A DNA stretch of 54,488 bases, the filler included, from Sphacelaria rigidula (lineage: Eukaryota): assembly GCA_964200075.2 (NCBI GenBank). It is 3 parts of 3 records of this genome, joined end to end, with 100 filler letters (N's around TTAATTAATTAA, not from the genome) between each part and the next. Parts side by side here need not be neighbours in the genome. Positions count along the whole stretch, not along the records: positions 36,395 to 54,488 come from CAXNAA020000921.1; 2 more parts are not named here. The stretch is one strand, 5' to 3'. Both the position numbers and the translations under genes were made by a program. The notes under the pieces were generated by a model. The model saw nothing but the letters and a program-made list of their open reading frames with translations, ran no database searches and was not told the DNA's origin. Below, in pieces: positions 1,260 to 54,488 of this stretch. Positions within the stretch are counted from its first letter, which is position 1. Each line of letters begins with the position of its first letter.

Positions 1260-3245
1260 CAAGGGCAGGTCGAGTTGAGTATACTCAAGACTCAGTATTT
1301 TCGAAGAGTCAAACTTTTAGTGCTCAATTTTTGAGTACAGAAGTTGAGGCCGTACTCAATCTACTCAACATTTGAGTAGAGGATGTGAGATCATACTCAA
1401 TCTACCCAAACATTGAGTAGAGTATTGAGGTCATACCCAAGTGATACTCCATACTCAAGTATCACTGAGAGGGCTTGCTCAATATTTGAGTGGAGTATCG
1501 GAGGTCGTACTCAATCTACTCAACATTTGAGTAGAGTATTTGAGGCCGTACTCGACCTGCTCAGAAATTGAGATGAAGATTGAGGTCATACCCAAGTGGT
1601 ACTCTATTATCATGTATTACTGAGAGTGCTTACTCAATATTTGAGAAGAGTATTGGAGGTCGTACTCAATAGCCGGTCGCCCTGGTGGCTTAGTTGGTAA
1701 CCTCGAAACGCTCTGACAGTTGGGTCGTGGGTTCAATTCCAGGAGCGATCTGGGATTTTTTCTCACACAATGCCCAACAGTGGAGAGCGACGATGTCGTG
1801 GGTACACAAAATTCGACTCGACGGTCGACGAGGGAAAGGGTCTGCTACACCCCTTTCGCGATAAAAAAGAAAGACAAGCATCGCAGAAGAAAGGTGGGGT
1901 CCTAAAAAAAAAAAGAAGCTCCTGTGTCGACCTTCCTCCAGTGTGACCCCGGCTGGTGCGCTCACATATACCGCAAGGTGTAGACCGGCACCCAGAATAG
2001 ATGGGACGACAAGACACACAACACAACACACCCAATCTACTCAAAATTTGAGTAAAGTATTTGAGGCCGTACTCGACCTACTCAAAAATTTAGTTTAGTA
2101 CTTGAGGTCATATTCAATCTACTCAAAATTTGAGTAGAGTATTTGAGGCCGTACTCGACGTGCTCAAAAGTTGAGTTTAGTACTTGAGGCCATATTCAAT
2201 CTACTCAAAATTGAAGTAGAGTATTCGATGTCATACCCAATGTACCCGAAAGTCGGGTAGAGTATCTGAGGCCGGCCCCGATGTATCACCGCTGACTCTC
2301 CCATGGAGGAGTCACATGCGCGGCCAGTACAGTCGCTCATTTTGATATCACCTACCCGACTACCCGTCTACTCGATTACTCAACGATGATGAGTAGCGCT
2401 CTGTACTGAAAGTGGTATCGAAGAGGTTGAGAGGTATCTAGTATGTACTGCCATGGGTGGGGCCAGGTGAGCTGGGGCAGGTAAGTTCATTCACCTGCAC
2501 GCTTTTTTTTGTTTTTTTATGGCCATCATTCGCTCATACTCACTCTAGCCCGTGACGTACCGCCAATCATCTAATTTATGGCCATCGCTCGCCCATGTAT
2601 TCAACATAGTCTGTGAAGTGACGTCACGAAGTCGCCGACGGGCACTGTTACTTATCATACTCAAGTGATACTTTATACTCCAGTATTGCTGAGAGTGCTT
2701 ACTCGATATTTGAGTAGAGTATTTGAGGCCGTACTCGACGTGCTCAAAAATTGAGTCGAGGATTGAGGCCATACCCAAGTGATACTCTATACTCAAGCAT
2801 TACTATATACTCTATACTCAAGCATTACTGAGAGTACTGAGAGTGCTTAATCAATTTTTGAGTAGAGTAGTGCACGTCGTACTGAATCTACTCGAAATTT
2901 GAGTAGAGTATTTGAGGTCATACTGAACCTACTCAGAACTTGAGTAGAGTATTTGAGGCCGTACTCGACCCACTCAAAAATTGAGTAGAGTATTAAGGCC
3001 ATACCCAAGTGATACTCTATGCTCAAGTATCACTGAAAGTGCTTACTCAATAGTTGAGTAGAGTATTGTAGGTCGTACTCGATCCACTCAAATTTGAGTA
3101 GAGTACTTGAGGCCGTACTCGACCTAATCAAAATTTGAGTAGAGTATATGAGGCCGTACTCGACTTGTCAAAATTGGGGTTGAGTAAATACTATGGTATT
3201 TCACTCGAGTACTCAAAAGTACATACTCTACGCGACCTGCCCTTG
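1260..3245 (+). mobile_element. Non-autonomous hAT-type DNA transposon with long subterminal tandem arrays (copy 1)
   Basis: TIRs caagggcaggtcg / cgacctgcccttg; perfect 8-bp TSD cagacttc (1252-1259, 3246-3253); arrays of a ~41-bp unit containing the palindrome tactcaaaatttgagta. Confidence 0.9.
1671..2030 (+). mobile_element. SINE family 1, full length, nested in hAT copy 1
   Basis: tRNA-like head (tggcttagttgg…ggttcaattcc), (acaca)n tail, probable TSD actcaat/acccaat. Confidence 0.85.
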
Positions 3246-11350: not shown

Positions 11351-13063
11351 CAAGGGTAGGTCGAGTAGAGTGTGTACTATTTAGTACTCGAATAAAATAT
11401 TCAAGTATTCACTCTGCTCGACGTTTGAGTAGGTCGAGTATGGCCTCAAATTCTCTACTCAAATTTTGAGTAGGTCGAGTGCGACCTCAAATATTCTACT
11501 CAAATATTGAGTAAGCACTCTCAGTGATACTTGAGTATAGAGTATCACTTGAGTATTACCTCAATACTCTACTCAAAATTCGAGTACGTCGAGTATGGTC
11601 TCAAATACTCTACTCAAAATTCGAGTACGTTAAGTACGGCTCCCAATACTCTACTCGATTTTTGAGTAGGTCGAGTATGGTCTCAAATACTCTACTCAAA
11701 TATTGAGTAAGTACTCCCAGTAATACTCGAGTATAGAGTATGACTTGAGTATCACCTCAATACTCTACTCAAAATTTGAGTAGGTCGAGTATGGTCTCAA
11801 ATACTCTACTCAAATTTTGAGTAGGTTGAGTACGACCTCAAATACTTTACTCAACTTTTGAGTAAGTTTTCTCAGTAATGCTTGAGTATAGAGTACCTCT
11901 GACAGTTGGCGACTTCGTGACGTCAGTTCACAGGTGATGTTGAATGCATGGGCGAACGATGGCCATCAATTAGATGGGCGGCAATATATCACAGCCAACA
12001 AGGAGTACGAGCGAATGATGGCCATAAAAAAATCAAGAAGCGTGCAGGTGAACGAACCTACTTGCCCCAGTGCCCTATCTCACCAGCCCCCACCCACAGC
12101 AGTTCGTACTCGATACCTCTTAACACCTTCGATATCACTTTCAGTACAGAGCGCTACTCATCATCATCGAGTAATCGAGTAATCGAATAGTCGAATAGTC
12201 GAGTAGTCGAGTAGTCGAGTAGTCGAGTAGGTATTATCAAAAAATGAGCGACTCTACTGGCCACGGTTTGACGAGGCATTTTGACCTTGAATCAACTCTC
12301 ATCATGGGTGGGCAGCTCTAGGAATACCTCGGTATTTCCTCTAGCCGAGTTTGAGTATCTTGCGTACGAACTTGAATATTGAAGTTGAGGTTATAGGTTT
12401 TTGGTACATCGGACCCGGCCTCAGATACTCCACTCAATTTTTAAGTAGGTCGAGTACGGGCTCGATACTCTACTCAAATTGCAAGTAGGCCGAGTACGGC
12501 CTCCCATACTCTACTCAAAGTTTGAGTACGTTGAGTACGGCCTCCAATACTCTACTCAAAGTTTGAGTAGGTCGAGTACGACCTCCAATACTCTACTCAA
12601 ATTTTGAGTAGGTCGAGTATGACCTCAAATACTCTACTCAAATATTGAGTAAGCATTCTCAGTGATACTTGAGTAAAGAGTATCACTTGAGTATCATCTC
12701 AATACTCTACTCAAATTCTGAGAATGTCGAATACGGCCTCAAATACTCTACTCAAATTTTGAGTAGGCTGATTATGGTCTCAAATACTCTACTCAAATTT
12801 TGAGTAGGTCGAGTACGACCTCAAATACTCTACTCAAATATCGAGTAAGCACTCTCAGTGATACTTGAGTATAGAGTGTCACTTGAGTATCACCTCAATA
12901 CTCTACTCAAAATTTGAGTACGTTGAGTATGGTCTCAAATACTCTACTCAAATTTCGAGTACGTTGAGTACGGCTCCCAATACTCTACTCAAATTTTGAG
13001 TACTAAAAGTATGACTCTTCAAAAATACTGAGTATTGAGTATACTCTACTCGACCTACCCTTG
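11351..13063 (-). mobile_element. Non-autonomous hAT-type element (copy 2), inverted relative to copy 1
   Basis: TIRs caagggtaggtcgagtagag / ctctactcgacctacccttg; 8-bp TSD aattcatc/aatttatc (1 mismatch); same arrays and same unique core as 1260-3245 in reverse complement. Confidence 0.9.
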
Positions 13064-18098: not shown

Positions 18099-18198
18099 NN
18101 NNNNNNNNNNNNNNNNNNNNNNNNNNNNNNNNNNNNNNNNNNTTAATTAATTAANNNNNNNNNNNNNNNNNNNNNNNNNNNNNNNNNNNNNNNNNNNN
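18099..18198. other. Artificial contig linker (N44-TTAATTAATTAA-N44)
   Basis: Exactly 100 nt, with a six-frame stop cassette. Confidence 0.97.
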
Positions 18199-20035: not shown

Positions 20036-20279
20036 CTGGTGGGTTGTGCTGTAATGCGTGAGAGGACCGCGTGCTTAGAGGACCGCGCCGTAGTTCGAAA
20101 CACCTCAGGATCGACGTTTTTCAAATCCAGTCGAGCCAGTTCCTGAAGGGACCACGCCCCTGACTCTAACCCCAACACTGACCCTAACCCTAACCCTAAC
20201 CCTAACCATGGGGGTGTTCAAATTCCGATGCGATCCTCTAAGCACGCGGTCCTCTCACGCATTATAGTGCGACCACCGG
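20036..20279. mobile_element. MITE with ~65-bp TIRs and an internal (CCCTAA)n tract
   Basis: taatgcgtgagaggaccgcgtgcttagagga / tcctctaagcacgcggtcctctcacgcatta; direct flanks ggtat (20031-35, 20280-84); ccctaa repeats at ~20180-20207. Confidence 0.8.
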
Positions 20280-22239: not shown

Positions 22240-23620
22240 GTGAGATATGGATATCAATCTGGGGACTCTATCTGGGATCTGCAATGTCAGGATATCCCAC
22301 ATGGACATCTATCTAGGATCTGAGGTCCATCTGCCACAACAGTCTGGGATATGCATATCTTCCTGGAAGCTCTGTCTTCGTCCACGACATATATATATAT
22401 CCATTTGGAATTTCTGTCTGGGATATGGGTTTTCATCTGGGATGCTCACCCGAGATGTTCATCTGGGACGTACACAGGATACATTCCTGTATTCACGTGG
22501 CATAATCATGCTGGATGTCTAACCGGGATAAGGATGATCATCCGGGACCTTCACCTGTGGCATCCGTCTGGCACATGGACATCCCCGTTAGATGCTCAGC
22601 TAGATTTAGGATTCCCAGCTAGATTTGGGATGCCCACCTAGATCTTGGATGCCTCACATGGACATACAGTCGAATATGGAACATCCCCCTGGAACATCTC
22701 ATCTGTCGAGACTGGCTTGACTTGTCGGCGAGTCTTTGCACCAGGTTACCGCTGCTAACCGAAGCCAACCGGAACCTCAACCTTAATTACAGCCCTGGCC
22801 CACACCCGTGAACAACTCATGCACTAGTGACTATACATTGGTGTCAGTATGCACTGGTGGAGAGTCGCCGAGTATGCGCTGTCACCTAGGCTAGCGCGTG
22901 CTGGTTGAGCACCGTGTAGTATGTGCTGAGAGGGTGTCCATATGGGTCTTGCTATTTCCGTCAACGTTGACGTAATCTGTTACATCCGTCAACATTCAGC
23001 ATCCGTTCCACAAGCCCCGCATGGACACAGCAACACATGGAAAACACTCACACAGTCTCTAGCTCTCGTTCAAGTCATCGCACGGAGCAAGCGGACTCGT
23101 AACGGATGAGATACATGCATGATGCATGGTGGCATGCCGCAAGCGTGCTCGCTCTGCCACAAGCATGTATCTCATCCGTTACGGGTCCGTTTGCTCCGTG
23201 CGATGACTTGAACGATAGCTAGAGACTGTGTGAGTGTTTTCCATGTGTTGCTGTGTCCATGCGGGGCTTGTGGGACGGATACTGAACGTTGACGGATGTA
23301 ACAGATTACGTCAACGTTGACGTGAATAGCAAGACCCTATCCATTTCGGCTAGCATGCGTTCTTCGAGTGTGGTGCAGTGTGCGCTGGTAAGATACCCAT
23401 CTTGGTTATCGTGAGCCGATACAATGTTACGCTGTATACGTAGGTATGGATGTCCCAGGTTCATATTCCAACGTTCTCGAAGTCCCACATGTCTACACGT
23501 CCCACACAGATGCAGATGGATATCCCACGTGGATAGCCCAGGTAGACGGCTATACTTCGGAAGAATGATCCAGATGAATATCGTAGGTAGCTACTCACAT
23601 CCTCGAGGCATATTTGACAT
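22240..23620. repeat. Degenerate element with CATCTGG/GATATCC motif arrays of opposite polarity at its two ends, hosting nested MITEs
   Basis: catctgg-rich at 22240-22700 and ccagatg-rich at 23450-23620; same layout at 26190-26900. Confidence 0.45.
22944..23337. mobile_element. Foldback MITE (Tourist/PIF-Harbinger-like) forming a near-perfect 394-nt hairpin
   Basis: Ends gggtcttgctatt / aatagcaagaccc; ~175-bp arms with a few mismatches; 3-bp direct flanks TAT. Confidence 0.85.
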
Positions 23621-36294: not shown

Positions 36295-36394
36295 NNNNNN
36301 NNNNNNNNNNNNNNNNNNNNNNNNNNNNNNNNNNNNNNTTAATTAATTAANNNNNNNNNNNNNNNNNNNNNNNNNNNNNNNNNNNNNNNNNNNN
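36295..36394. other. Artificial contig linker (N44-TTAATTAATTAA-N44)
   Basis: Identical to 18099-18198. Confidence 0.97.
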
Positions 36395-36571
36395 AAAAAA
36401 AAAAAGAGTCCCCCCCCCCCCCCCCCCCCCGCGCCTATCGAGCCTGATCCGGCGAAAACTGGTCGTGCTCCGTCCGGGCTTTGTAGGGATGCGAGGTCAA
36501 TGGTCATATGATTACGACATGTAAGATCATGAGTGCACACCCCCTCTTAGTAGGATGAGTCTGAATCGTAC

Positions 36572-43719: not shown

Positions 43720-45822
43720 GACCGGAACGTCCGCAATGTATTTTTGGCTCCGTTGTCGCTTGCTTGGAGTCGAAATGATGACAATCGGTTAAAAAATGCT
43801 GCTGTTGTCGTTGCTGCCACTGCTGTTGCTGTTGCTGCTGCTGGGTGTGAACGGGGTCCCACGCAGTTTTAAATCTCTCCAGAAACAAGTCGTTTTTGGA
43901 ACCTTGACTTCCTCGAAACCTGCGTTAGCCACGCCGACGACATTCAGTGGCACCATTGGCAATAGATTTGATCGAGAGGTTTCCGATGAGACGGGGTCTT
44001 CCGGAACTGTACCGCAGTTTTGCTTTTCGATAGAGATACAGGGTGATGAAAGGCTTGTCAACAGCGGGTGTTATTCCCCGTCACCTACTGTTGCTTCGGA
44101 ACTACAGTAGTAGCACACCGTAGTAAGGGGGGGAGCAGAGGCCGAGTGACTCATGTTGCTTGACTAGCCTGAACGTTTTGAATATGGTATGTCCCACCGA
44201 AATGTGTTGGAAATCTTGTTGTCTGCATGAAGAAATCACACAAACTTGTTCAGGTGCAAAGACGGTCGCGTTCGTCTTGAAAAATCAGTGCTTGACACGT
44301 TGCGGAAAATATGGAGGGGGGGGGGAAGTGTACGATACAGACAGTGTACACCTAGATTTGAAGCCAGTCCCACGATTTTCTCGAGAAGCTAACACTCCAC
44401 ACTCTCATGGAACCCTGATGCATTGAAATATCCTGACGAGACTCTTTATCAAACGGCAAAGTTATCCGCGGCGCCGCAGTTCTGGCGAGAGCGGAGGATT
44501 AAGAAACTCGTCGCCTGGGGGTGTTATACACCGTCACGCAAAGATGGAACTGTGGACTGAGAGGGGGATCCTGAGCTAGACACAGAGGCTAGCTGCCACA
44601 GCAAAGATCCAGAGACCTAGAGACTACCGTGCCCCTCCTTCAGATTTTTCCCACCGTGTGATATTCAGAGACGGCTTGCCGCATAGCCTGCAAATAGCGT
44701 GGGTCAGACGCTAGTTGCAGGCGATCGAAGCTCGACGTCAAAGATCTCCTGTCTGGACTGACCGTAAGATCTGCACCACCCTTCTGTGTGTACGAGTACC
44801 GCCTTCCTTCGTTGAACCAGCCAAAAGGGTGTGTAAGTGCTGAAGACACGAACAAACCACATAATAATTCATGTGATACGCTAAGGAGCTTTCTGTAACC
44901 CTCAGTTATCTCTATCCACAGCAATCAGCTACTGCTTTTCATAGGCAGTGTAGGGACAGGCCGATATCTACTTTTCGCACCAAAAATAATTTTTGCCCTG
45001 TCATGTGTGGAGGTGCTTGATCTACTTACCCACACGAGGCGATCTCCCGCCGCCCTTACCCTTTCTCGGAAAGAGATCTATGATGAAGGGATGGACGGTG
45101 ATGAAAATCTTTTAAAGCACCCACCTGCTCTCCTTGTCAGACCCACGGGTGCCCGCTTTGCTGTACATGCAAGGTGCATTATAAACTGCACTTCTACCTG
45201 AGTCGCGGATCTGAGAAATCGGGCAACCGACCAAAAATTATAGTGAATGCATCGTCGCTGATAAATCCGTAATTTTCGCTCTTGTTGGCTTTCATTTCTA
45301 TTGTGAACATTTCTTATGAACAATTATGAGCAGTGGCCTCAGCTCTACCTACATATATGAGTTCTATACCAACTGATTTATTAAGGGTGTGAATACAGAT
45401 GCGTCAAAGTCGTGAAAATAAAGAAATGCATTCTAGGTGGCTGAATTTCTTTTGACTTCAGGTCTTAGTATAATTTATGTCTATGAATGTAGACAGCACA
45501 AAAACATAAAACTGAGTGATGACCTCACAAAGTTTCAACAAGGGGTTCAAACGTCAACTACATCTTCCTGAAGCCCCCCCCGCCCAAAAGAGCCTTCTTG
45601 AAGTCACAGAACAGCATTGCACATACCAGCATACACCACAACCACGACAGGATTCATAACTGATCGACACACGGCGAAACTTACATAGCCTCGTCACCTC
45701 GGCCTCATCACACTCTTCCTCCGCCACGGCATAGTGCGCTTCCTTCACAACGAAATAACTCCGCGCTCACATCTCGTCCCTGTCCTGAACACTACTGGAC
45801 TGGGCATAACATCGTCATCAAC

Positions 45823-47285
45823 ATGAAGGCAGCGATCAGCACACGGGTCGGCCTCACGGAAGATTCGGCGAGCGAGTCGGACTATGACTTCGTCAGCGAC
45901 CCTGAGAACACCCCACCATCAAGTCCGCGCGCGGGCGCCGCCGCTGGAGCGGCTGGAGAGAGTCCCGGTGGCAGCGGCTCCGCCATAGCGGCGGAGCCGG
46001 CCGTAGTGGTGGTCGGACCCAGCGCTGTAGGAGAGATCGCTGGTTTGATTTCCACTGTTGCACCTGGTGGGGGTAGCGGCACGACGAAGGCACCCTTGTT
46101 CAAGTGCGCGGTGTGTGCTGGATTGCTGAGGGACTGCGTCGAGTGTCCGCGTTGCCACAGTCTTTTCTGCCGAAAGCACTTGACCGTGAACAAATACGGG
46201 AGGAGCCCGTGCGCGTACAAGCCATGTTGTTCCACCTCGACCGACGACTCCAACATCAACAACAACCCAACAGGTGCAGGCAGTTCCAGGAAGAGCAAGT
46301 CGAGAATCACCTCCGTTCTTTCAAACAACACCATGCCCCCCAACGTCAACGACAGCAATGCAACAGCAGCAGCTGCTGCAGCATCCTCTCTCCCGGAGGA
46401 AGCGTTCCAGCCCAACATCCCCGTCCAGCGCATGGCAGACGCCGTTCCGTCCGTCTGCAAAGCCTGCAACCTGAGCCTCACCTGGGGCGAACTCGGCTCA
46501 CACACGTGCGATCTCCAGATCGTTCCGTGCCCCGAAGCCCGGTGGGGGTGCACGTGGACCGGCCGCCGAGTTCAGTTGGCGAGCCACTCGGCAGGGAAGG
46601 GGAGTTCAACTTGCCCCGGCCGCATCGCGCGCGTGGAAAACAAGCTCTCCGAGGTGCGCGCCGAGCTATCTGCTTCTCGAGGGGAGGTCCTCGCCGCCCG
46701 GGAAGCGTGCCGAGCTATGGAGCGTCGCGCCCTTGAGGCGGAGATCAAAGTCTCTAAGATGGAGGAAGCGTGTTCTGCGCGTCTGCGCGAGAGGGAAGAG
46801 GAGAAGGCTCGGGCAGACGCGGCGGTTGCGGCGCTTGAGAAGGCGAACGCGGATATCGATAAGCTAAAGAAGGCTACTATTTCGAGTGCCAGGGTAGCTT
46901 TTAGAGGAGCCCCTGATAACAAGGCGTCCGGTACTACTGCCGCTCCTACTGCTTCAACTCAAGAGCAACAACAACAACAGCAACACGGTCTGGGGGCGAT
47001 CACAGCTATGTTCACCGGCAGCGTCAGCAGCACCGAGGCAGTCACAAACCGAGACAGCAACAGCAGCGCAAGCGGTACTGCGGGTAGCCAACAACAGTTG
47101 CCTTCTTCCCCTAGCCGGCGTCAAAGATCTACTGCATCTGCTGCTTCCACGACTTCAAGGATGCCACAGGCAGCAGTCGAGGCCGCGTGCCAGGCGCCGG
47201 TGCCCGCTACGGAGGCGTGCTTGAGACCGTACCTGGAACGGCCCGACTCCTTGCTTGAGAAGAAGGTTGTGGTCTTCTGGCCTAG
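45823..47285 (+). CDS. RING-like plus TRAF/SIAH-type zinc-finger plus coiled-coil protein, long first exon
   Basis: 488-aa ORF; CAVC…CPRCHSLFCRKH…C; CKAC…H.C…VPCPEARWGCTWTGRRVQLASH…C; heptad-rich E/A/K/R segment; probable donor TAG|gtgagg after KKVVVFWP. Confidence 0.85.
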
Positions 47286-49462
47286 GTGAGGCAACATCAA
47301 CAGCACTTTCCTGAAGCATCGCGGGCTTGTTTTTATTTGTCACCACTCCGGGTACCGTGAAGAATTTTCAACGTAAGGGGTGTGTATCATGCATGTTACC
47401 GTCTTCAAGTTCGATGAAATGGCACCGAGGTTGTAATGGGAGAGAGGTGTATCGGCTCGACGCCTGAAACACAAGCAGGGGTAGACGGTAGATAGCAGTG
47501 TGCTTTGTGCATGTGCGTACTTGACAAAAGTTTTTTCAAAGTTTAAATTCGTGAACAAATTCGGAGGGATTGCACCGTACTACGATTGTATGCTCTGGAG
47601 CTGTGCTTTTCTGTAGAACTGGTGTATACTCAAATGCTAGTGTTTTCAAGGGCGCTGATTCGATTCAGTACGGTCAAGTTTCCGTGCATACATTTCGCGC
47701 ATGCACAACGAATCACACAATCCAGGCCTTAGGTCTTCCTGGTGTTGATGCACGTACTATTTTACTTCCTATCCTGGTCGGTGTCGGTGTCTGTCGTGTA
47801 CGGAGAACAACATGACATATTCAGCATACACGAAACTCTTATACAACGCATGTGGTTGTTGTGGTTGTTGTTGTTATTGTTGTCGTTGTTGTAATTGTCA
47901 ATTATTCTTGTAATCGTTAATGGTTGTTGTATCCGGGGGAAAAAAAAAAGTCTTGGATCGTTTGTTGCTTGCTGTGTTCAGGCGCACAGAGAACTCGCGA
48001 ACGTTCAACAACAATCATGAATATATGGCATAATATTCTGCACTACCCGACCACTTGACAAACGCTGTACTGTATGAGCGCGGTACCGCAGCAGGGTGGA
48101 GACCGCCTTCTTCAGAAAATGGGTAGAAGGCCATGATGCCCGAGCCGATACGCCTGTTGAGGATACGACACGTGGTTCCCAGATGTGCACCGATCTTTTG
48201 CAAGTCCCATTTGTCACTGCTGGACACGGCACGGCTGGATTGAATTCGTGAGCGGACCCGTGATGTGACGACAATCGATGAACCCAACTAACCCAATGAA
48301 GTACTGCCTACTCCACCTATTCGATCAGCGACGAGGACCGCAGACCGTTTCACCGTCAGAGTGGAGTCGAGCGTTCATTCGGCATTAGATCATATTTTCG
48401 TTTGAAAATCTCCCATATTCGACGTATGTATATGTGCATATATATACGTATACATGCATAAGTAGGTGACCCCATCCCAGCGGTAGAATCGGATGCTCGA
48501 AAAGTAAATTTGTTTTTGCGAAAAAAAAATCAAACGAACAACCAAAATCCGCGCACCAAAAAAAAAGAAAAAGCAACTCCGCGCAACTGCACTATTATTG
48601 TGGTTCCGCTAAGGCTTCACTTTCCGTAGGTGACGGCATAACACAGATGGATGGGAGATATTGTAACGATCGCGGGTGCCTGCGTGCACCACCAGGAAGC
48701 AGTGGAATGCAATGGCCACCGTTTTTTTCGCCAGCAAGGACCTTTTTTCCGCGTACTTTGGCGCTGTGGAAAGTGTGCTCATCGAAAAGTGTCGAAATGG
48801 GTGACTCGTGACTGGAGATTCACAACCAGGGAATGAAGGGGCTCAGACAGCAGTCGGGTAGTAGATGCTTCCATGTTCCGTCAATTCACAACAGTACAAA
48901 GTATTGCTTTGCTGCAGCAGCACTAAACAAGGAGTATCTTGGGGAGCGCTGGATGCTGACGTCCCGGTGGGGTAGTACTCATGTATTTCATACGCATATC
49001 CCCCTCCACTTTTTGTTTGGATGCTTATTAATATTAGGGCGTGTTCTCAGCACGTTATCTTTCGATCGAAAAAGGGCGTTGGGAAAAGACAAATTTCGAT
49101 CTGATAGGTCTGGATCCCTGGGGGGTCAGTTGAAGTGCGACAATCAATTCATCAAATGAATCAGAAGGTCGTCGTTTTCAACATAGATGACGTGGACATG
49201 AACGACGGCTCTATCACATCACTCGTCACCGCAGATGGTAGTATGGCGGCCATGGTCTCCCCCCAACATATGCCCCAAGACTTCGTGTGCTGCTGCTCCA
49301 GTAAGTCAAGAGAAGGAAGTCGCCAGATCGACCGATTGGATACTCGGAAAAGCGTCAAACTGAGGGCGAACAATATCCGCATCCGTTTTGGAGTTGTCCT
49401 TACTATTATAAGGCCACATTCTGTCAAGTGTGCGCGCGTGTGTGTGTTCGTCGTTCGATATA

Positions 49463-49585: not shown

Positions 49586-52500
49586 GGAACTGTTTTTTAA
49601 TTTTTATTTGGTATTTCAGGGTTGGGGGGTACTGTATACATCGTTTTTTGCCCTCCCCCAAAACAAGAAAAATTACCACCGCGAACGAATTCGATCGAAT
49701 CAGTTCCGCCGCGATATTATATTTGAATTTTTTTTTTTGCTTGAGGCACGATCTCAAGCAGAACGGAAGTGAACCCGAGATTGATCGGCAAAAATTATGC
49801 AAGGGTCGCGGATATCACGGCTGGTTCGAATAACCATATGTCCGATTTGTTAGGCCTGATGACTCGATAAACGGAGTTTTTTTTTTACCGCGCGTAAAAA
49901 GAAGTCTTTACGACAAAAGAGAACTGTCTCTTTTACCAGAATGAAAGCAGGTCGGAATCGTGCTGTACAAACACCTTGAAAATAATGCGGGGGGATTTTT
50001 CTGAGGATGGGTGGGGGGTCACACATGACAAAAATAGGTTACCACTTGGGTGGCAAAACTCTACTGCACATCACACCCGGAGAGTGTAATCGCGCTTTTA
50101 TTTCGGAGATACTTCGATGCTTTTTCATGAATGGACGGCATTGGAAAGACAAGCCTACGTATGTGACTACGGGTTCGAGAAATCAGACTGATGTACGGCA
50201 ATGATAATAATGACAACAGCAATATAAACAATGATGATGACGAAGGTTCCCGAGGTTCATCCTCGATAAAATAGTCCATCCTCATTTTTCAAAATTCCGC
50301 ATTTGTTCCACGCTCCTAGGTGTGGAGCAACATTGAAGCCGAAGCTCGAGGATTGATTCGAACGGTACCCATAAATTACACTATTATAATATTAATCGCA
50401 AGTAGTTTTCAGAGCAGTTACCTCTCGTGCGACTCTCGGAAGAAATAATTGCTCTACTATGGTGGATTACGAGAAAAAAATACTAATGGAATAGACTATT
50501 CTTTGACCAAAATAGTGAGCATCATCCGGTGCGGCAAAGGCTACAAAACTATTCGTCTTCTCCCCAAATTTAGAGACCGTTACAACGAACGCGCGAACGC
50601 GCAATCGGAGAATGACCGCACAGACGAGCACAGAGCAGATGAAATCACGATTTTTTTTCCCTGAAGAACTAAAGAGAAGACAGTACAGTACAGTCGGTAC
50701 GCTGATGAGAAGAGTCTTGGCTTTTTCTGTCGCCGAAGCACGGAATGCTCTATTGGTTTTCGCAATATTTTTGCAAGCAGTTCCACGCCAACCAAACGAA
50801 CTACGGTGATGGCTGACGGCGAGAACGAGCCGAACGCCGCATAAAAAACATTGACGTTGACCCTTGGACCGCGAGGGTAGTCCATCTGGATTATGGTCAA
50901 AATTACAAGTGAAAGTGATGCCTACTCAACAGATGAATTACTCTCGCGTCGAAGGGTTGAAAACAAACTGCTATAATTAATGAATGTCACGGCGGCGAGA
51001 AATTTCAATTTGTTCGGCCGTTTCGTACTGTTCCCAGAATGCTTCTCGCAACAAAAAAAAGAAGAGGAATATTTCGTTCTACTCGAAAACTTGTGATGGG
51101 AAAAATTCCGACCCTTAGTTAGACCGCTTGTTGTGGATATGAAATGCAATGCCTCGGATATATCTCAAAACCCTTGGCACTGAACCCACAGATGAGGGCA
51201 AGAATTATGAGTTGCAAGGTTTCTCGACCAATCAGAGTCTTCAAATATACCAATATGCGGCGACCTTTCTTCAATTAGATAAGAGATATGAGAGGGAGGT
51301 ATATCAAAAAGCAGCTATGATTGGTTTACACATTGCGCCGCTGCGATACAGACAGCTGCTACCGGCAATAAACGAGGATACAGCAGCTCCGTGCTGGCTC
51401 AGTTTGTCCCAACCTGCACGCACCCGCCTGGCGTGTCTTCCCCGATCACAGCCCCCGACTATAACTGAAGTAGCAGAAGAGACTCAACAGACAGCTGTAC
51501 AGCCGTCAAGTGACGATTGTTCCAACCTTTCTTTGTTTCGGCAGCACCTTGATCCCACGCCAATTCTGTCCAGCCCGAAACACGGCATGCAGCAGTGCAA
51601 CTGCTTAGGCACCGTTCAATGCACATTGCACCGTCATCGTCGAAGAGCGTTTGGATGCCTGACAGCACAGCGAGAACTACAGCACAGAAATGATGGGCAT
51701 GCTATGAACGAATCAACGGTGTGTAGAGAGCACTGCGTGCCGACAAGATTATTTTTGATGGAGACGAACGGAATGACAATATAAAGCAACTCAGGCACTC
51801 CTAGCGGAGATCAAACCGTCTTCACGAAGGCCTGAAGTCGCCACAGCGCAGCGACAGCTACAGCACACAAGACAGAGCATGAATGTGTTTGTGCTGCAGC
51901 ACAGTGGTACAGGAACATGTCCCATTCGGTAGTTATTCCCCTGATTTCGGGTGGGTCCTCGATTTTTACCCAGTGGCGATTTTCAAACGCTCGGCCATAA
52001 TCGAGCTTCGCGCGAAGATATTTTACTTCACTTTGAGTTCCCCCCATCTGTGGGAGGTGAGCCAAATCCTTTGACCGCGAAGGGGCAGGTCATCCGGGCA
52101 TGCAACTTTTTTTTTAAAGTGAAAACTGATGCTCAGTCATCGGATGACCTATGCTCGCGGTCAGAGGATCAAAGAAAAACGCCCATTCTGGCGATTCGGA
52201 TATCTTTTCTGTTGGTTGTTGTCTTATTCTTGGTGGATGGTACCTTAACCCTTGTAGAAGCGATGATGAAGAAATGACGATTTACAAATGACGTTTTCGC
52301 GGGCAAGATATGGCTGTTTTTCTGCAACGGTGCATGATGCAGCCTTCCAAAACGGTGCGCCACTCTAAGTTCGAGTATACTAATATGACGGATTCGTGCA
52401 CCGAACTGGAGGTGACGTTTTTCCGATGACGGAAGCTCGCATATGGGAGTTCATACCTTTTTTAGCGAGTTCCAAAAGGGTTTTTTATCGTGAAAAAAAC

Positions 52501-52757
52501 GGTATACTTCCTCTGTCCCATAAGTAAAGGTACCTAGATTTATACGGGCCCTTAACGATGTCCGATCGCTTTTTTTTTTCTTTGTGATGTGATGAACTAA
52601 CTGTACGGTGTTTTTGGGGTTGAAAAAGTGTGTTTAAAATTTGCAGCTCGTGCTTGAACCATGCCGCCGAACGGCTGCAAAAAAAGTAGTCGGCCCCAAA
52701 ATCGCCGTTTTTTGCCCCTTCCCGGGCCAGGTTGTGGCGCGTGGTCTGTTGTGTGCT

Positions 52758-53054
52758 ATGGGGTCCAGCGGTGGGGTGGTGAGAACTTGTACCTCATGTG
52801 GAGGTACCATCGTATCATCGAGTCACCAAATCAGGTCACTAGATGAGCCAGAAACCATGTATAGGACATGTACGAGGTGCGGTCCAGTGTCTGAGGTATT
52901 GCGGATAAGGGATGCTAGGAGTGTAAGAACAGTTGGAAACACCCTCAGCTTACACAGGCCCATTAGCCCACTGGCCCACTGGATTGGCTGGATAGTTGGT
53001 CTGAAACCTGACTACCCTAGACAACGGCACCCTACTTCTAATGGGCCTGTGTAA
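52758..53054 (+). CDS. Small ORF or gene fragment with a TFIIS-C/RPA12/RPC11-type zinc ribbon (left arm); expression unknown
   Basis: CTSC-x23-CTRC enclosing QIRSLDEPETMY; no introns. Confidence 0.5.
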   Translation: MGSSGGVVRTCTSCGGTIVSSSHQIRSLDEPETMYRTCTRCGPVSEVLRIRDARSVRTVGNTLSLHRPISPLAHWIGWIVGLKPDYPRQRHPTSNGPV

Positions 53055-53246
53055 GCTGAGGGTGTTTCCAACTGTTCTTACACTCCTAGCATCCCTTGTC
53101 CGCAATACCTCAGACACTGGACCGCACCTCGTACATGTCCTATACATGGTTTCTGGCTCATCTGGTGACCTGCTTTGGTGACTCGATGATACGATGGTAC
53201 CTCCACATAGGGTACAAGTTCCCACCACCCCACCGCTGGACCCCAT
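52950..53246 (-). CDS. Mirror copy of the TFIIS-type zinc-ribbon ORF (right arm); expression unknown
   Basis: CTLC-x23-CTRC enclosing QSRSPDEPETMY. Confidence 0.5.
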   Translation of the reverse strand: MGSSGGVVGTCTLCGGTIVSSSHQSRSPDEPETMYRTCTRCGPVSEVLRTRDARSVRTVGNTLSLHRPIRSRVPLSRVVRFQTNYPANPVGQWANGPV

Positions 53247-53924
53247 AGCACACAACAGACCACGCGCCACAACTTGACCCATGTCGATTTTTTTCCACTC
53301 GGGAAGGGGCGAAAAACGGTCATTTTTGGGCCGACTACTTTTTTTGCAGCCGTTCGGCGGCATGGTTCAAGCACGAGCTGCAAATTTTAAACACATTTTT
53401 TTAACCCAAAAAACACCGTAGAGTTCATTGAAGAAAGAACGATCGGACATGAAGGGCCCGTACAATTTTAGGTGCCTTTACTTATGGGACAGAGGAAGTA
53501 TCGTACTCTCTCTGACAGGATTTCGTTGTCCAGCATACTTTCCACATCTGTCGTGTACCTCACATTAGCCCGCTTTTCTTTAGAAGCCGCGGTGACAGAT
53601 GTAGGCGCGCATTTCTGATGCCGTCAAGATGACCTTTAACATTAAGATACGCAGAGGCGCTCTCATTGCGCGAGCGGCTTCTTTTGAGAGCCCTGAAACA
53701 AAATAAACATTAAAAAACACGTTTGCAGCTGTTTGTTCCGAAATCGCTCGGCATAAAAACTTACACTCTATTCATGTAGGGGAAGTGCAGAATTACTTCG
53801 GGTCAAGCCTTTTCGAACGAGGATGTCATCACAGAATAGGATCCTCACCGTAATTTTTACTCGCATCGGGATCGACGTATCCTCAGGCGGTTGATCAAAT
53901 TTGGAATAGTTTTTTTGGCGGGGG

Positions 53925-54245
53925 GAGGGGGGTGTACCCATGATCATGCATGCCAAAGTCATACGACCTTTGACCTCACATCCCTACAGAGCCGGGACGG
54001 ACCACGCCGGGTTTTCGCCGGACCGGGCTCGCCATGAATCACCAAGCGCGAAGCACCGTGCATGTGTTCGGCTAGTCGAATGAAGGGCGACCTGCATCCT
54101 GCGAAGATTGTTTGGCCCAAAGCGCGCACTGATTTCCTTGCATATGGATGACAGCCTACAATGAATTGCTTTCTTTTTTGGTATCGCCACTTCCAGGGAA
54201 AGCCACGGCTTACACGCTGCCTCATGGATGGTGAGACAGACATCA
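53925..54245 (+). repeat. Interspersed repeat family 3
   Basis: Colinear similarity with 13885-14195. Confidence 0.7.
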
Positions 54246-54368
54246 GAGTGGTGGGAGTCTCATATCAAGTGTATGGAGGCGGAGCATCTCAAGAAAAGAA
54301 AAAAAAGAAGGAAATAAATGACTTGCTTGCTCATCGTCAGGATGGTGTAATCGAACAACCCACACACG

Positions 54369-54415
54369 TTATTATGATTATGATTATGATTGTGATGATG
54401 ATTATTATTGTTATG

Positions 54416-54488
<73 letters not shown>
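54369..54488. repeat. (ATT/GAT)/(TAC)n/(TAT)n microsatellite at the contig end
   Basis: Direct reading. Confidence 0.95.

Follow-up and report, generated by a model that had tools for sequence, protein, structure and literature searches.

A Stowaway-like palindrome in Sphacelaria rigidula, a probable Pack-Mariner-like transposon with an inverted fragment encoding a TFIIS-type zinc ribbon

Results

Architecture of the palindrome and its termini

The window, by which we mean the whole stretch of 54,488 nt that was analysed, contains a TA-flanked palindrome of 996 nt at 52505-53500. Its arms are about 462 nt long (52505-52966 and 53038-53500). The features are as follows.

52505..52506, no strand: left TA, a putative target-site duplication, directly outside the left terminus and at the start of the family contigs
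52507..52523, plus strand: core of the left terminal inverted repeat (TIR), the 17-mer CTTCCTCTGTCCCATAA, exact
52507..52723, plus strand: left outer arm, member of an abundant repeat (MITE) family; summed depth 13,425-71,566 in run X1
52724..52966, plus strand: left inner arm, unique cargo
52758..53054, plus strand: open reading frame (ORF) of 98 aa, with the ribbon at residues 10-42 (nt 52785-52883); it continues through the spacer
52950..53363, minus strand: ORF of 137 aa with the motif QSRSPDEP; MGSSGG starts at 53246
52967-53037, no strand: non-palindromic spacer of 71 nt
53038..53280, minus strand: right inner arm, unique cargo, with exact matches in runs X1, X3 and X5
53281..53299, no strand: segment of 19-20 nt present in the right arm only, at the junction of cargo and family (20 gap columns), inside the unique X1 unitig 53038-53327
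53300..53498, minus strand: right outer arm, from the same abundant family and with the right TIR at its end; depth 23,621-76,755 in X1
53482-53498, minus strand: right TIR, the exact second occurrence of the 17-mer
53499..53500, no strand: right TA, adjoining the right terminus

The complementarity of the arms was found as three blocks, of 243 nt (97%, the inner arms), 126 nt (94%) and 50 nt (92%), and the left and right termini are identical over 26 nt. The 17-mer matches the window exactly twice, where 0.10 matches would be expected, and two or more were found in one of 100 shuffles. A TA stands on both sides of the element, although 2 bp is too short for proof of a duplication, and no site without the element was seen. 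The terminus has 12 of 14 bases in common with the TIR of Ppmar2, a mariner-like element of a plant, bamboo, whose TIR is printed in Table 1 of PMC6696609. Like Stowaway MITEs, the element is rich in A/T runs, has hairpin potential over its whole length (predicted fold of -846.7 kcal/mol, z -56.7) and takes its ends from a very abundant family. In these respects the sequence-only reading of this DNA, which had described inverted arms of ~460 bp between TA dinucleotides, a 71-nt spacer and mariner/Stowaway-like ends, holds good. Unlike Stowaway MITEs, the element has a length of 996 nt and a unique, coding-like centre; it is only the outer arms that are abundant, short and non-coding, whereas the whole element with its cargo is unique. 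No further copy of any of six parts of the element was found by blastn within the window, and there was no Rfam match at E<=1 in 51500-54488.

The outer arms differ from each other by 19 substitutions in 200 aligned bases and by 39 gap columns, with insertions of 16 nt and 3 nt in the left outer arm relative to the right, whereas the inner arms differ at 8 of 243 positions (Fisher p 0.0087). The higher divergence of the outer parts agrees with a MITE that is older than the duplication at its centre. Hypermutable A/T runs, or conversion by other copies of the family, could be an alternative source of the extra divergence. A one-step fold-back of a whole arm was set aside in view of the significantly higher divergence of the outer arms relative to the inner.

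Copy-level evidence from sequencing runs

The copy-level evidence consists of the contigs of four public runs (X1, X3, X5 and X6), and summed contig depth is not to be read as a copy number. Over the outer arms the summed depth in X1 is ~13,000-77,000, against about 24 in the unique flanks, whereas the inner 243 nt and the spacer lie at about single-copy depth (inner bins 0-44). Contigs of the family begin to match at 52503-52505 and have unrelated flanks (40, 38 and 25 contigs; agreement 0.36-0.39). The contig depths in the four runs thus support a two-part arm, the outer part a high-copy family and the inner part unique cargo, which is the division that had been proposed from the sequence. 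We saw no canonical structure of the outer-arm family, and in none of the four runs was an additional copy of the inner 243 nt visible at a likeness of at least 90%. A 36-mer from the family core had no exact match in metagenome contigs, a 22-mer from the terminus had none in metagenome or viral contigs, and a 41-mer from the coding part of the ribbon had none in viral contigs.

The right inner arm is well represented in these runs. X1 holds 53038-53327 with no other letters at a depth of 39, about twice that of the flanks, and the arm is exact over 53038-53237 in X3 and over 53069-53273 in X5; relative to the flanks, the depth of the inner arm is about twofold in X1 (two arms) and about onefold in X3 and X5. 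In none of the four runs does the left inner arm occur in the form given by the window, and the bin 52808-52891 has a depth of 0 in all of them. The X1 data suggest that the inner arms are there identical to each other. X3, X5 and X6 have gaps in cover over the spacer and the left arm, and such gaps prove nothing. X6, which is only guessed to be RNA, has a depth of 3-4 over the unique flanks and a single 149-nt contig over 53208-53326, and is uninformative on expression.

Against an assembly or sequencing fold-back it had been argued that the arms differ by substitutions. That argument fails for the inner arms, given that the left version is found in none of the runs, and the same absence is what speaks for an artefact. 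However, exact short-read unitigs of X1 at single-copy depth span the left junction (52292-52527), the right junction (53472-53948) and the entire spacer with 30 nt from each arm (52937-53067, 131 nt). In addition, the palindrome ends precisely at the family termini, with unique flanks on either side, and its 71-nt centre is not palindromic. The exact X1 unitigs over both junctions and the spacer argue that the palindrome is not an assembly fold-back, and we consider such an artefact extremely improbable. X1 may be the same sample that gave the window assembly.

Two inward ORFs encode a TFIIS-type zinc ribbon

Both ORFs read inward, one from each arm; on the right, the ribbon ORF can be followed upstream in frame to an ATG at 53363, which belongs to the family part. 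The left copy has cysteines at residues 11, 14, 38 and 41 and the motif QIRSLDEP. Like the ribbons of TFIIS, RPA12, RPC10 (RPC11), RPB9 and archaeal TFS, both copies have CxxC...CxxC with Q.RS.DEP between, and both pass the gathering cut-off of 21 for Pfam PF01096 (32.6 bits for the left copy, 27.1 bits for the right); in alignments, QIRSLDEP and QSRSPDEP stand opposite RSADE of RPA12 and RAGDE of the T. celer protein. The best PDB matches, by sequence and by fold, are the ribbons of RPA12, archaeal TFS/RPB9, RPC10 and TFIIS, at a sequence similarity of 14-21 bits (at most 20.8). An AF2 model, of low confidence and built from a 5-row alignment, has a mean pLDDT of 53.5, with three strands in residues 11-50 (61-76) and with residues 51-98 below 50. 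With this low-confidence model as query, the best 18 Foldseek rows against the PDB were RPA12, TFS, RPC10 and TFIIS, at E 0.057-0.83 and with none at 1e-3. The NCBIfam scores were 16.5 bits for TFS_arch and 14.8 bits for TFSII, against cut-offs of 64.75 and 237.1.

Unlike the polymerase ribbons, the ribbon here has one residue fewer than the PF01096 profile and is N-terminal in its ORF, starting at residue 10, and the other domains of those proteins are absent; the layout of whole TFIIS, RPA12, RPC11 and RPB9 proteins, with the ribbon at the C-terminus after an N-terminal ribbon or the TFIIS domains II-III, is therefore not the one seen. Pfam found no other domain beside the ribbon in either ORF. 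The sequence-only reading had named a TFIIS-type ribbon directly after the ATG, and it was right on both points: the Pfam and PDB matches agree, and the ribbon is N-terminal also in the sole database relative, described below. Among 28 long frames elsewhere in the window none exceeded a Pfam threshold, PA (21.3 bits) and TerL_ATPase (16.9 bits) remaining below theirs.

Over 69 codons the two ORF copies differ by six substitutions, which make five amino-acid changes and of which none is synonymous. Since all six change amino acids, nothing in the sequence points to selection on the protein. Under neutrality none of six would be synonymous 18% of the time, so that the test is weak either way, and it is void if the left-arm differences in the window are consensus errors.

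As had been offered as an alternative before, the product of the ORF could be a functional mini-protein, namely a free-standing TFIIS-type ribbon that would enter the secondary channel of an RNA polymerase. The four cysteines and the D-E of the acidic loop are retained in both copies, the frame is open across the whole inner arm, and the Pfam cut-off is passed twice. However, two of the six non-synonymous substitutions adjoin the RS.DE motif (I/S and L/P), the C-terminal tails differ between the copies, each entering the spacer from the opposite side, and the tail (residues 51-98) is modelled as disordered. Furthermore, a gene embedded in a perfect hairpin should make a poor mRNA, and an orthologue is absent from the databases searched. 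We find no support for a functional peptide here and hold it to be hardly credible.

The search for a donor gene

Among 1.84 billion protein representatives the only match to the ORF was P0001, an orphan protein of 714 aa that resembles capping enzymes (E 9.9e-4). The match is confined to the ribbon, which is N-terminal in P0001 too (18 of 33 residues identical, the same spacing, 35.5 bits), and the ribbon is thus much closer to that of P0001 than to the solved ribbons. By language-model features the body of P0001 resembles the capping enzymes of Nucleocytoviricota (0.93, 198/256 shared). P0001 is located on contigs of ~22 kb, and the named member of its cluster is labelled fungal. A word-indexed protein search with residues 1-60 of P0001 returned only itself, and the viral contig collection contained no protein relative of the ORF or of P0001. 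For the 98-aa ORF, word-indexed searches gave 70 candidates among longer proteins and five among proteins of similar length, none of them at E<=1; tblastn against phage records gave four chance-level DnaJ matches only (E 0.9), and the ESM Atlas was uninformative (best 0.90, unnamed bacterial clusters). A donor gene, viral or cellular, was accordingly not found among the 1.84 billion representatives or, at a likeness of at least 90%, in the four runs. The foreign, possibly viral donor that had been proposed is not supported, its sole basis being the one weak match to P0001. That the cargo was recently copied from a canonical host exon for RPA12, RPC11, RPB9 or TFIIS is unlikely, judging from the 14-21 bits of similarity to solved ribbons.

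If the cargo did come from a virus- or plasmid-like element with a capping enzyme that begins with a TFIIS ribbon, the locus might have been selected as an RNAi trigger, the role suggested in the sequence-only reading, or as a memory, with siRNAs from its hairpin directed against that element. In keeping with this are the N-terminal ribbon of P0001 with its spacing and identities, the resemblance of its body to viral capping enzymes and its location on contigs of ~22 kb, the lack of a donor of at least 90% likeness in the runs and the predicted fold of the whole element. On the other side, the link to P0001 is one match in the ribbon only, the cluster carries a fungal label, the viral contig collection gave no match, and the locus stands alone, with nothing to indicate that it is conserved. 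We regard a selected trigger of this kind as very doubtful.

Discussion

We believe that the palindrome is probably a non-autonomous Tc1/mariner transposon of Stowaway-like type, similar to the Pack-Mariner elements, with two ends of ~220 nt from an abundant MITE family and a unique inverted gene fragment as cargo on which there is no constraint at the protein level. Pack-Mariner elements of rice and maize are presented as TA-flanked, low-copy carriers of gene pieces by Gisby and Catoni, 2022 (PMC8903248). As in the elements described there, the one described here is non-autonomous and of low copy number, has TA flanks and mariner/Stowaway-type termini but no transposase, and has an interior that is less repeated than its family and holds a coding piece. 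That interior encodes a recognisable protein domain; the only relative recovered was P0001 (E 9.9e-4), and the four runs show no additional copy of the interior at a likeness of at least 90%. We infer gene capture from copy number alone. Unlike in Pack-Mariner elements, the cargo is an inverted duplication with a spacer and occupies the exact centre of a hairpin-shaped MITE, and the host, according to the run labels, is not a land plant.

The central insert would comprise ~577 nt, an inverted duplication of 2 x 243 nt around the 71-nt spacer, and the duplicated cargo would be the 5' end of a divergent gene whose product begins with a TFIIS-type ribbon, namely its first 69 codons and the 34 bases before them. 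To account for it, we propose that the centre of a hairpin-shaped MITE broke, that an ectopic template was copied during repair of the break, and that the newly made strand snapped back, served as its own template and finally annealed again with the other MITE arm. The route outlined for Pack-Mariner elements in PMC8903248, in which two neighbouring insertions are mobilised jointly, does not fit here because the outer arms have no TIR where they meet the cargo, and joint mobilisation of two neighbouring MITEs was set aside. Read-through from a neighbouring promoter might yield an RNA with a hairpin of ~460 bp, which would be an incidental property of all such elements. In appearance the element is a routine by-product of transposon repair and not a working gene, and it is a further member of a kind already known. 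Read in this ordinary way, it adds to the cases in which a DNA transposon has acquired part of a gene, as a clean, central, palindromic capture in a hairpin MITE, and would be an example outside the land plants, in which Pack-Mariner elements were described.

The inner arms may instead be the 5' gene end of the family's own autonomous element, lying behind a TIR of ~220 nt and caught in an inverted partial duplication, whose hairpin transcript could silence that autonomous element. The precedent is maize Mu killer, which is reported in outline in PMC3440606 to be an inverted duplication of part of mudrA, with two copies of TIRA, that gives rise to a hairpin RNA; inverted duplications are also stated to arise by alternative Ac/Ds transposition (bioRxiv 10.1101/2020.01.07.897926). 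Like these, the element has two TIR copies and an inverted 5' part of a gene, from which a long hairpin RNA is possible by read-through. The layout that such an origin predicts is seen in both arms, with a TIR, a subterminal region and an inward ATG 34 nt past the family boundary; the family homology stops at the same arm position on the left and the right, and the in-frame ATG upstream of the right ribbon ORF lies within the conserved family core. Unlike in Mu killer, in which the transposon's own transposase is duplicated and silencing was shown genetically, none of the tests identifies the gene here as a transposase, and the element is known from DNA alone. Moreover, no run has a further inner-arm copy at the 90% threshold, Pfam found no transposase domain in the window, none of the 1.84 billion representatives joins a related ribbon to a transposase, and the titles and opening abstract lines of the papers found on TFIIS zinc ribbons and transposases name no such protein. 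We therefore think this origin possible but unlikely.

The idea of a hairpin RNA as an RNAi trigger is a conjecture that is structurally possible and, by analogy, resembles Mu killer. In its broadest form, the locus would be a natural 'killer' hairpin, a Stowaway-like element with an inverted 5' gene end, taken from a virus- or plasmid-like invader or from its own autonomous partner, whose read-through transcripts would give siRNAs that silence the invader. The captured gene would begin with a TFIIS-type ribbon and so have the unusual architecture of P0001. We judge this quite unlikely. If the cargo does come from either source, the locus would be a ready-made hairpin silencer comparable to Mu killer and, if the idea is true, an alga-side, transposon-borne analogue of it or of virus-derived RNAi memory.

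Apart from the origin of the element, proteins that begin with such a ribbon seem to exist, as P0001 is a TFIIS ribbon fused to a body resembling a capping enzyme. Its architecture hints at a transcription apparatus in which a capping enzyme reaches into the polymerase.

Results

The palindrome sits in the last of the three window pieces and is built from three collinear inverted-repeat blocks, which together give two arms of ~462 nt flanking a 71-nt spacer.

Inverted-repeat blocks of the palindrome
52504-52553 with 53452-53501: terminal block, 50 nt, 92%
52599-52724 with 53300-53425: outer block, 126 nt, 94%
52724-52966 with 53038-53280: inner block, 243 nt, 97%

TA stands immediately outside each terminus. 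The window of 54,488 bases contains the 17-mer terminus at exactly two places, the two element ends, with one copy per strand; shuffles give 0.10 occurrences by chance, and two matches were reached in 1 of 100 shuffles. The end bearing this 17-mer, TA CTTCCTCTGTCCCA, shares 12 of 14 bases with the start of the TIR, TA CTCCCTCCGTCCCA, of the published plant mariner-like element Ppmar2 (PMC6696609, Table 1). The outer arms differ by one 3-nt and one 16-nt indel, and the right arm carries 20 additional alignment columns exactly at the boundary of the outer and inner blocks. Folded as RNA, the 996-nt element has a predicted energy of -846.7 kcal/mol, against -313 ± 9 for shuffles (z -56.7). The inverted arms, spacer, TA-flanked termini and ORFs described in the sequence-only reading were all recovered.

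That reading had also divided each arm into a repeat-like outer part and a distinct inner part, and contig depths agree. Logan contigs of four public sequencing runs (X1, X3, X5 and X6) were aligned over 51800-54300. Unitig depth in the unique flanks is 19-24 in X1, where summed contig depth, which does not equal copy number, reaches 71,566, 13,425 and 54,560 in the left outer-arm bins and 76,755 and 23,621 in the right, against 0-44 in the inner bins (52724-53227). Outer and inner bins differ by three orders of magnitude, which identifies the outer ~220 nt as a very abundant repeat and shows the inner 243 nt, together with the spacer and the extra piece of 19-20 nt, to be unique at a likeness of at least 90%. 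Since dozens of contigs (40, 38 and 25) start matching at 52503-52505 and are preceded by unrelated sequence (agreement 0.36-0.39), the repeat family ends at the TA. Among the family contigs are joints that skip 52525-52640 and the mirror stretch 53384-53480, so that many family copies share just the terminus and a core of ~84 nt. No second copy of any part of the element was found elsewhere in the window. The DNA directly to the left, at 51800-52051 and 52388-52471, is also repeated (depth 13,000-23,000), and the palindrome thus sits among other repeats.

Exact X1 unitigs span the left junction (52292-52527, depth 19.1), the right junction (53472-53948, depth 24.2) and the spacer, the last in a 131-nt unitig (52937-53067, depth 19.5) that holds the 71-nt spacer and 30 nt of each arm, the cut expected from a k=31 graph. 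A long-read fold-back artefact is ruled out by these unitigs, but because the assembly may itself derive from the X1 sample, they are not independent proof of the palindrome. The left inner arm in the version of the window did not appear in any of the four runs, and bin 52808-52891 has a depth of 0 throughout. The right inner arm is matched exactly; X1 has it as a single 290-nt unitig without breaks, whose depth of 39 is roughly double that of the flanks. Read most simply, both inner arms of X1 have the right-arm version, in which case the eight differences between the inner arms of the window would be specific to a strain or errors of the consensus. The right arm lies at about flank depth in both X3 and X5; spacer cover is minimal in X3 (depth 2.71) and absent in X5, although such gaps in cover prove nothing.

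Each arm has an ORF that reads inward.

Zinc-ribbon ORFs
52758-53054, + strand: ORF of 98 aa, left arm
52950-53363, - strand: ORF of 137 aa, right arm

Since they run through the spacer in opposite directions, the two copies have different ends. Both carry four Cys and the Q.RS.DEP loop, and both pass the threshold of Pfam Zn_ribbon_TFIIS (32.6 and 27.1 bits for the 98-aa and 137-aa ORFs; cut-off 21), in agreement with the TFIIS-type ribbon proposed in the sequence-only reading. Among solved structures, RPA12 (E 0.0035, 20.8 bits), the Thermococcus celer RPB9/TFS-like protein, RPC10 and TFIIS give the best sequence matches. AF2, given a 5-row alignment, produced a model of poor overall quality (mean pLDDT 53.5), with three strands across residues 17-48 (pLDDT 61-76) and nothing confident past residue 50; the best 18 rows of a Foldseek search against the PDB are RPA12, T. 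celer RPB9/TFS-like, RPC10 and TFIIS ribbons, yet at E 0.057-0.83. At the level of sequence, the zinc-ribbon assignment stands. Membership of the cellular whole-protein ribbon families was rejected, as the ribbon lies at the ORF start with no other domain.

When the 98-aa ORF was searched exhaustively with phmmer against 1.84 billion representatives, a single protein came back at E<=1e-3: the 714-aa orphan P0001 (35.5 bits, E 9.9e-4), with its ribbon at residues 7-48. BLASTP aligns the two gap-free with 18 of 33 residues identical, and beyond the ribbon there is no similarity. The sole Pfam hits in P0001 are the ribbon and LEF5_C, a related family. Its cluster has five members, on contigs of ~22.2 kb, one of them an NCBI 'hypothetical protein' labelled Pyricularia oryzae. 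By language-model features P0001 resembles Nucleocytoviricota mRNA capping enzymes (0.93, 198/256 features), and its ten best family-bearing matches all agree on these enzymes; this is a likeness of features rather than an alignment, and serves as a lead. P0001 itself may be encoded by a linear plasmid or a virus-like element. Relatives of P0001 were found neither by word-indexed protein search nor in viral contigs.

For the donor, phage records, viral and metagenome contigs, word-indexed proteins and the ESM Atlas gave no further match, and the four runs held no additional inner-arm copy at a likeness of at least 90%. The low similarity of the ORF to canonical ribbons (<=21 bits), together with a nearest relative that is ribbon-first, leads us to infer a divergent ribbon-first donor gene, and not an exon of host RPA12, RPC11, RPB9 or TFIIS. 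The suggestion that the cargo is foreign, perhaps viral, gains one weak match in P0001, whereas the searches of viral contigs were blank; on that match, a foreign origin is possible.

Over the 69 codons within the arms, the ORF copies differ at six bases in five codons, all non-synonymous (R/G, S/L, I/S, L/P and I/T). With ~25% of sites synonymous, zero synonymous changes has p 0.18 under neutrality, so this weak test gives no sign of protein-level constraint between the copies, and would be void were the left-arm differences to be errors.

Discussion

How the palindrome arose may be read from the divergence of its arms, whose identity increases towards the centre (92%, 94% and 97%). In the outer arms 19 of 200 aligned bases are different, with 39 gap columns, against 8 of 243 in the inner arms (Fisher p 0.0087). 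A single fold-back copying the whole arm predicts equal divergence and was set aside because the outer arms are more diverged. Joint mobilisation of two adjacent MITEs was also rejected: inner TIRs would be expected, and none are present. The best fit is a route that would start from an older hairpin-shaped MITE broken at its centre. One broken end may have copied ~310 nt of an ectopic template, after which the new strand would have snapped back and copied itself and, on reaching arm sequence, annealed to the opposite arm. The gradient could be mimicked by arm-to-arm gene conversion, stronger centrally, or by conversion of the outer arms from other family copies.

The main rival is an origin like that of Mu killer, with the inner arm being the 5' end of an autonomous element's own gene behind a long TIR. 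In PMC3440606, Mu killer is described as part of mudrA duplicated in inverted orientation, with two copies of TIRA and a proposed hairpin RNA. The layout here fits, with the ATG 34 nt beyond the family boundary and a further, in-frame ATG within the family core of the right arm. However, neither a second inner-arm copy at a likeness of at least 90% in the four runs nor a transposase in the window was seen, and a literature search covering titles and the starts of abstracts turned up no TFIIS-ribbon transposase.

PMC8903248 describes rice and maize mariner-superfamily elements as almost always flanked by TA, and Pack-Mariner elements of these plants as low-copy and carrying gene pieces. Our element fits the latter kind, but its cargo is itself palindromic and is placed at the hairpin centre.

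Judging from predicted folding, the potential of the element to give hairpin RNA is real. To our knowledge, such potential is common to every whole-length hairpin MITE. The reading of this putative hairpin locus as a silencer is accordingly one we consider very unlikely. As no result indicates a function and the hairpin potential is general, we file the locus as a Pack-Mariner/Stowaway-type element with inverted-duplication cargo, a kind already known.

The surroundings of the element are repeat-rich, with no recognisable gene nearby. An extremely abundant repeat lies at 53920-54235, with a summed depth of ~1e6 against ~24 in the flanks in three DNA-like runs; G-runs precede many of its copies. 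Long G or C homopolymers occur at 36410, 38664, 38827, 43016 and 43201. The open frame 45664-47286 (+) spans 541 codons, matches no Pfam family and is probably a host gene exon; it combines Cys-rich motifs with a long, charged stretch that looks helical. Linkers of the form N...TTAATTAATTAA...N, with stops in all frames, join the three separate pieces at 18099-18198 and 36295-36394, and features are therefore not to be read across them. At 22944-23337 lies another whole-length hairpin element, which belongs to a different family (183-nt arms, 94% complementary, 28-nt spacer); its ends start GGGTCTTGC, with TAT on either side. Eight CCCTAA units (20158-20207) between 58-nt inverted arms (20042-20099 and 20217-20274) form an interstitial telomere-like repeat within a small inverted-repeat element, 20042-20274. 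Long tandem arrays of a 41-nt unit lie on opposite strands at 1321-3186 and 11424-13003, with higher-order periods of 82, 155 and 196.
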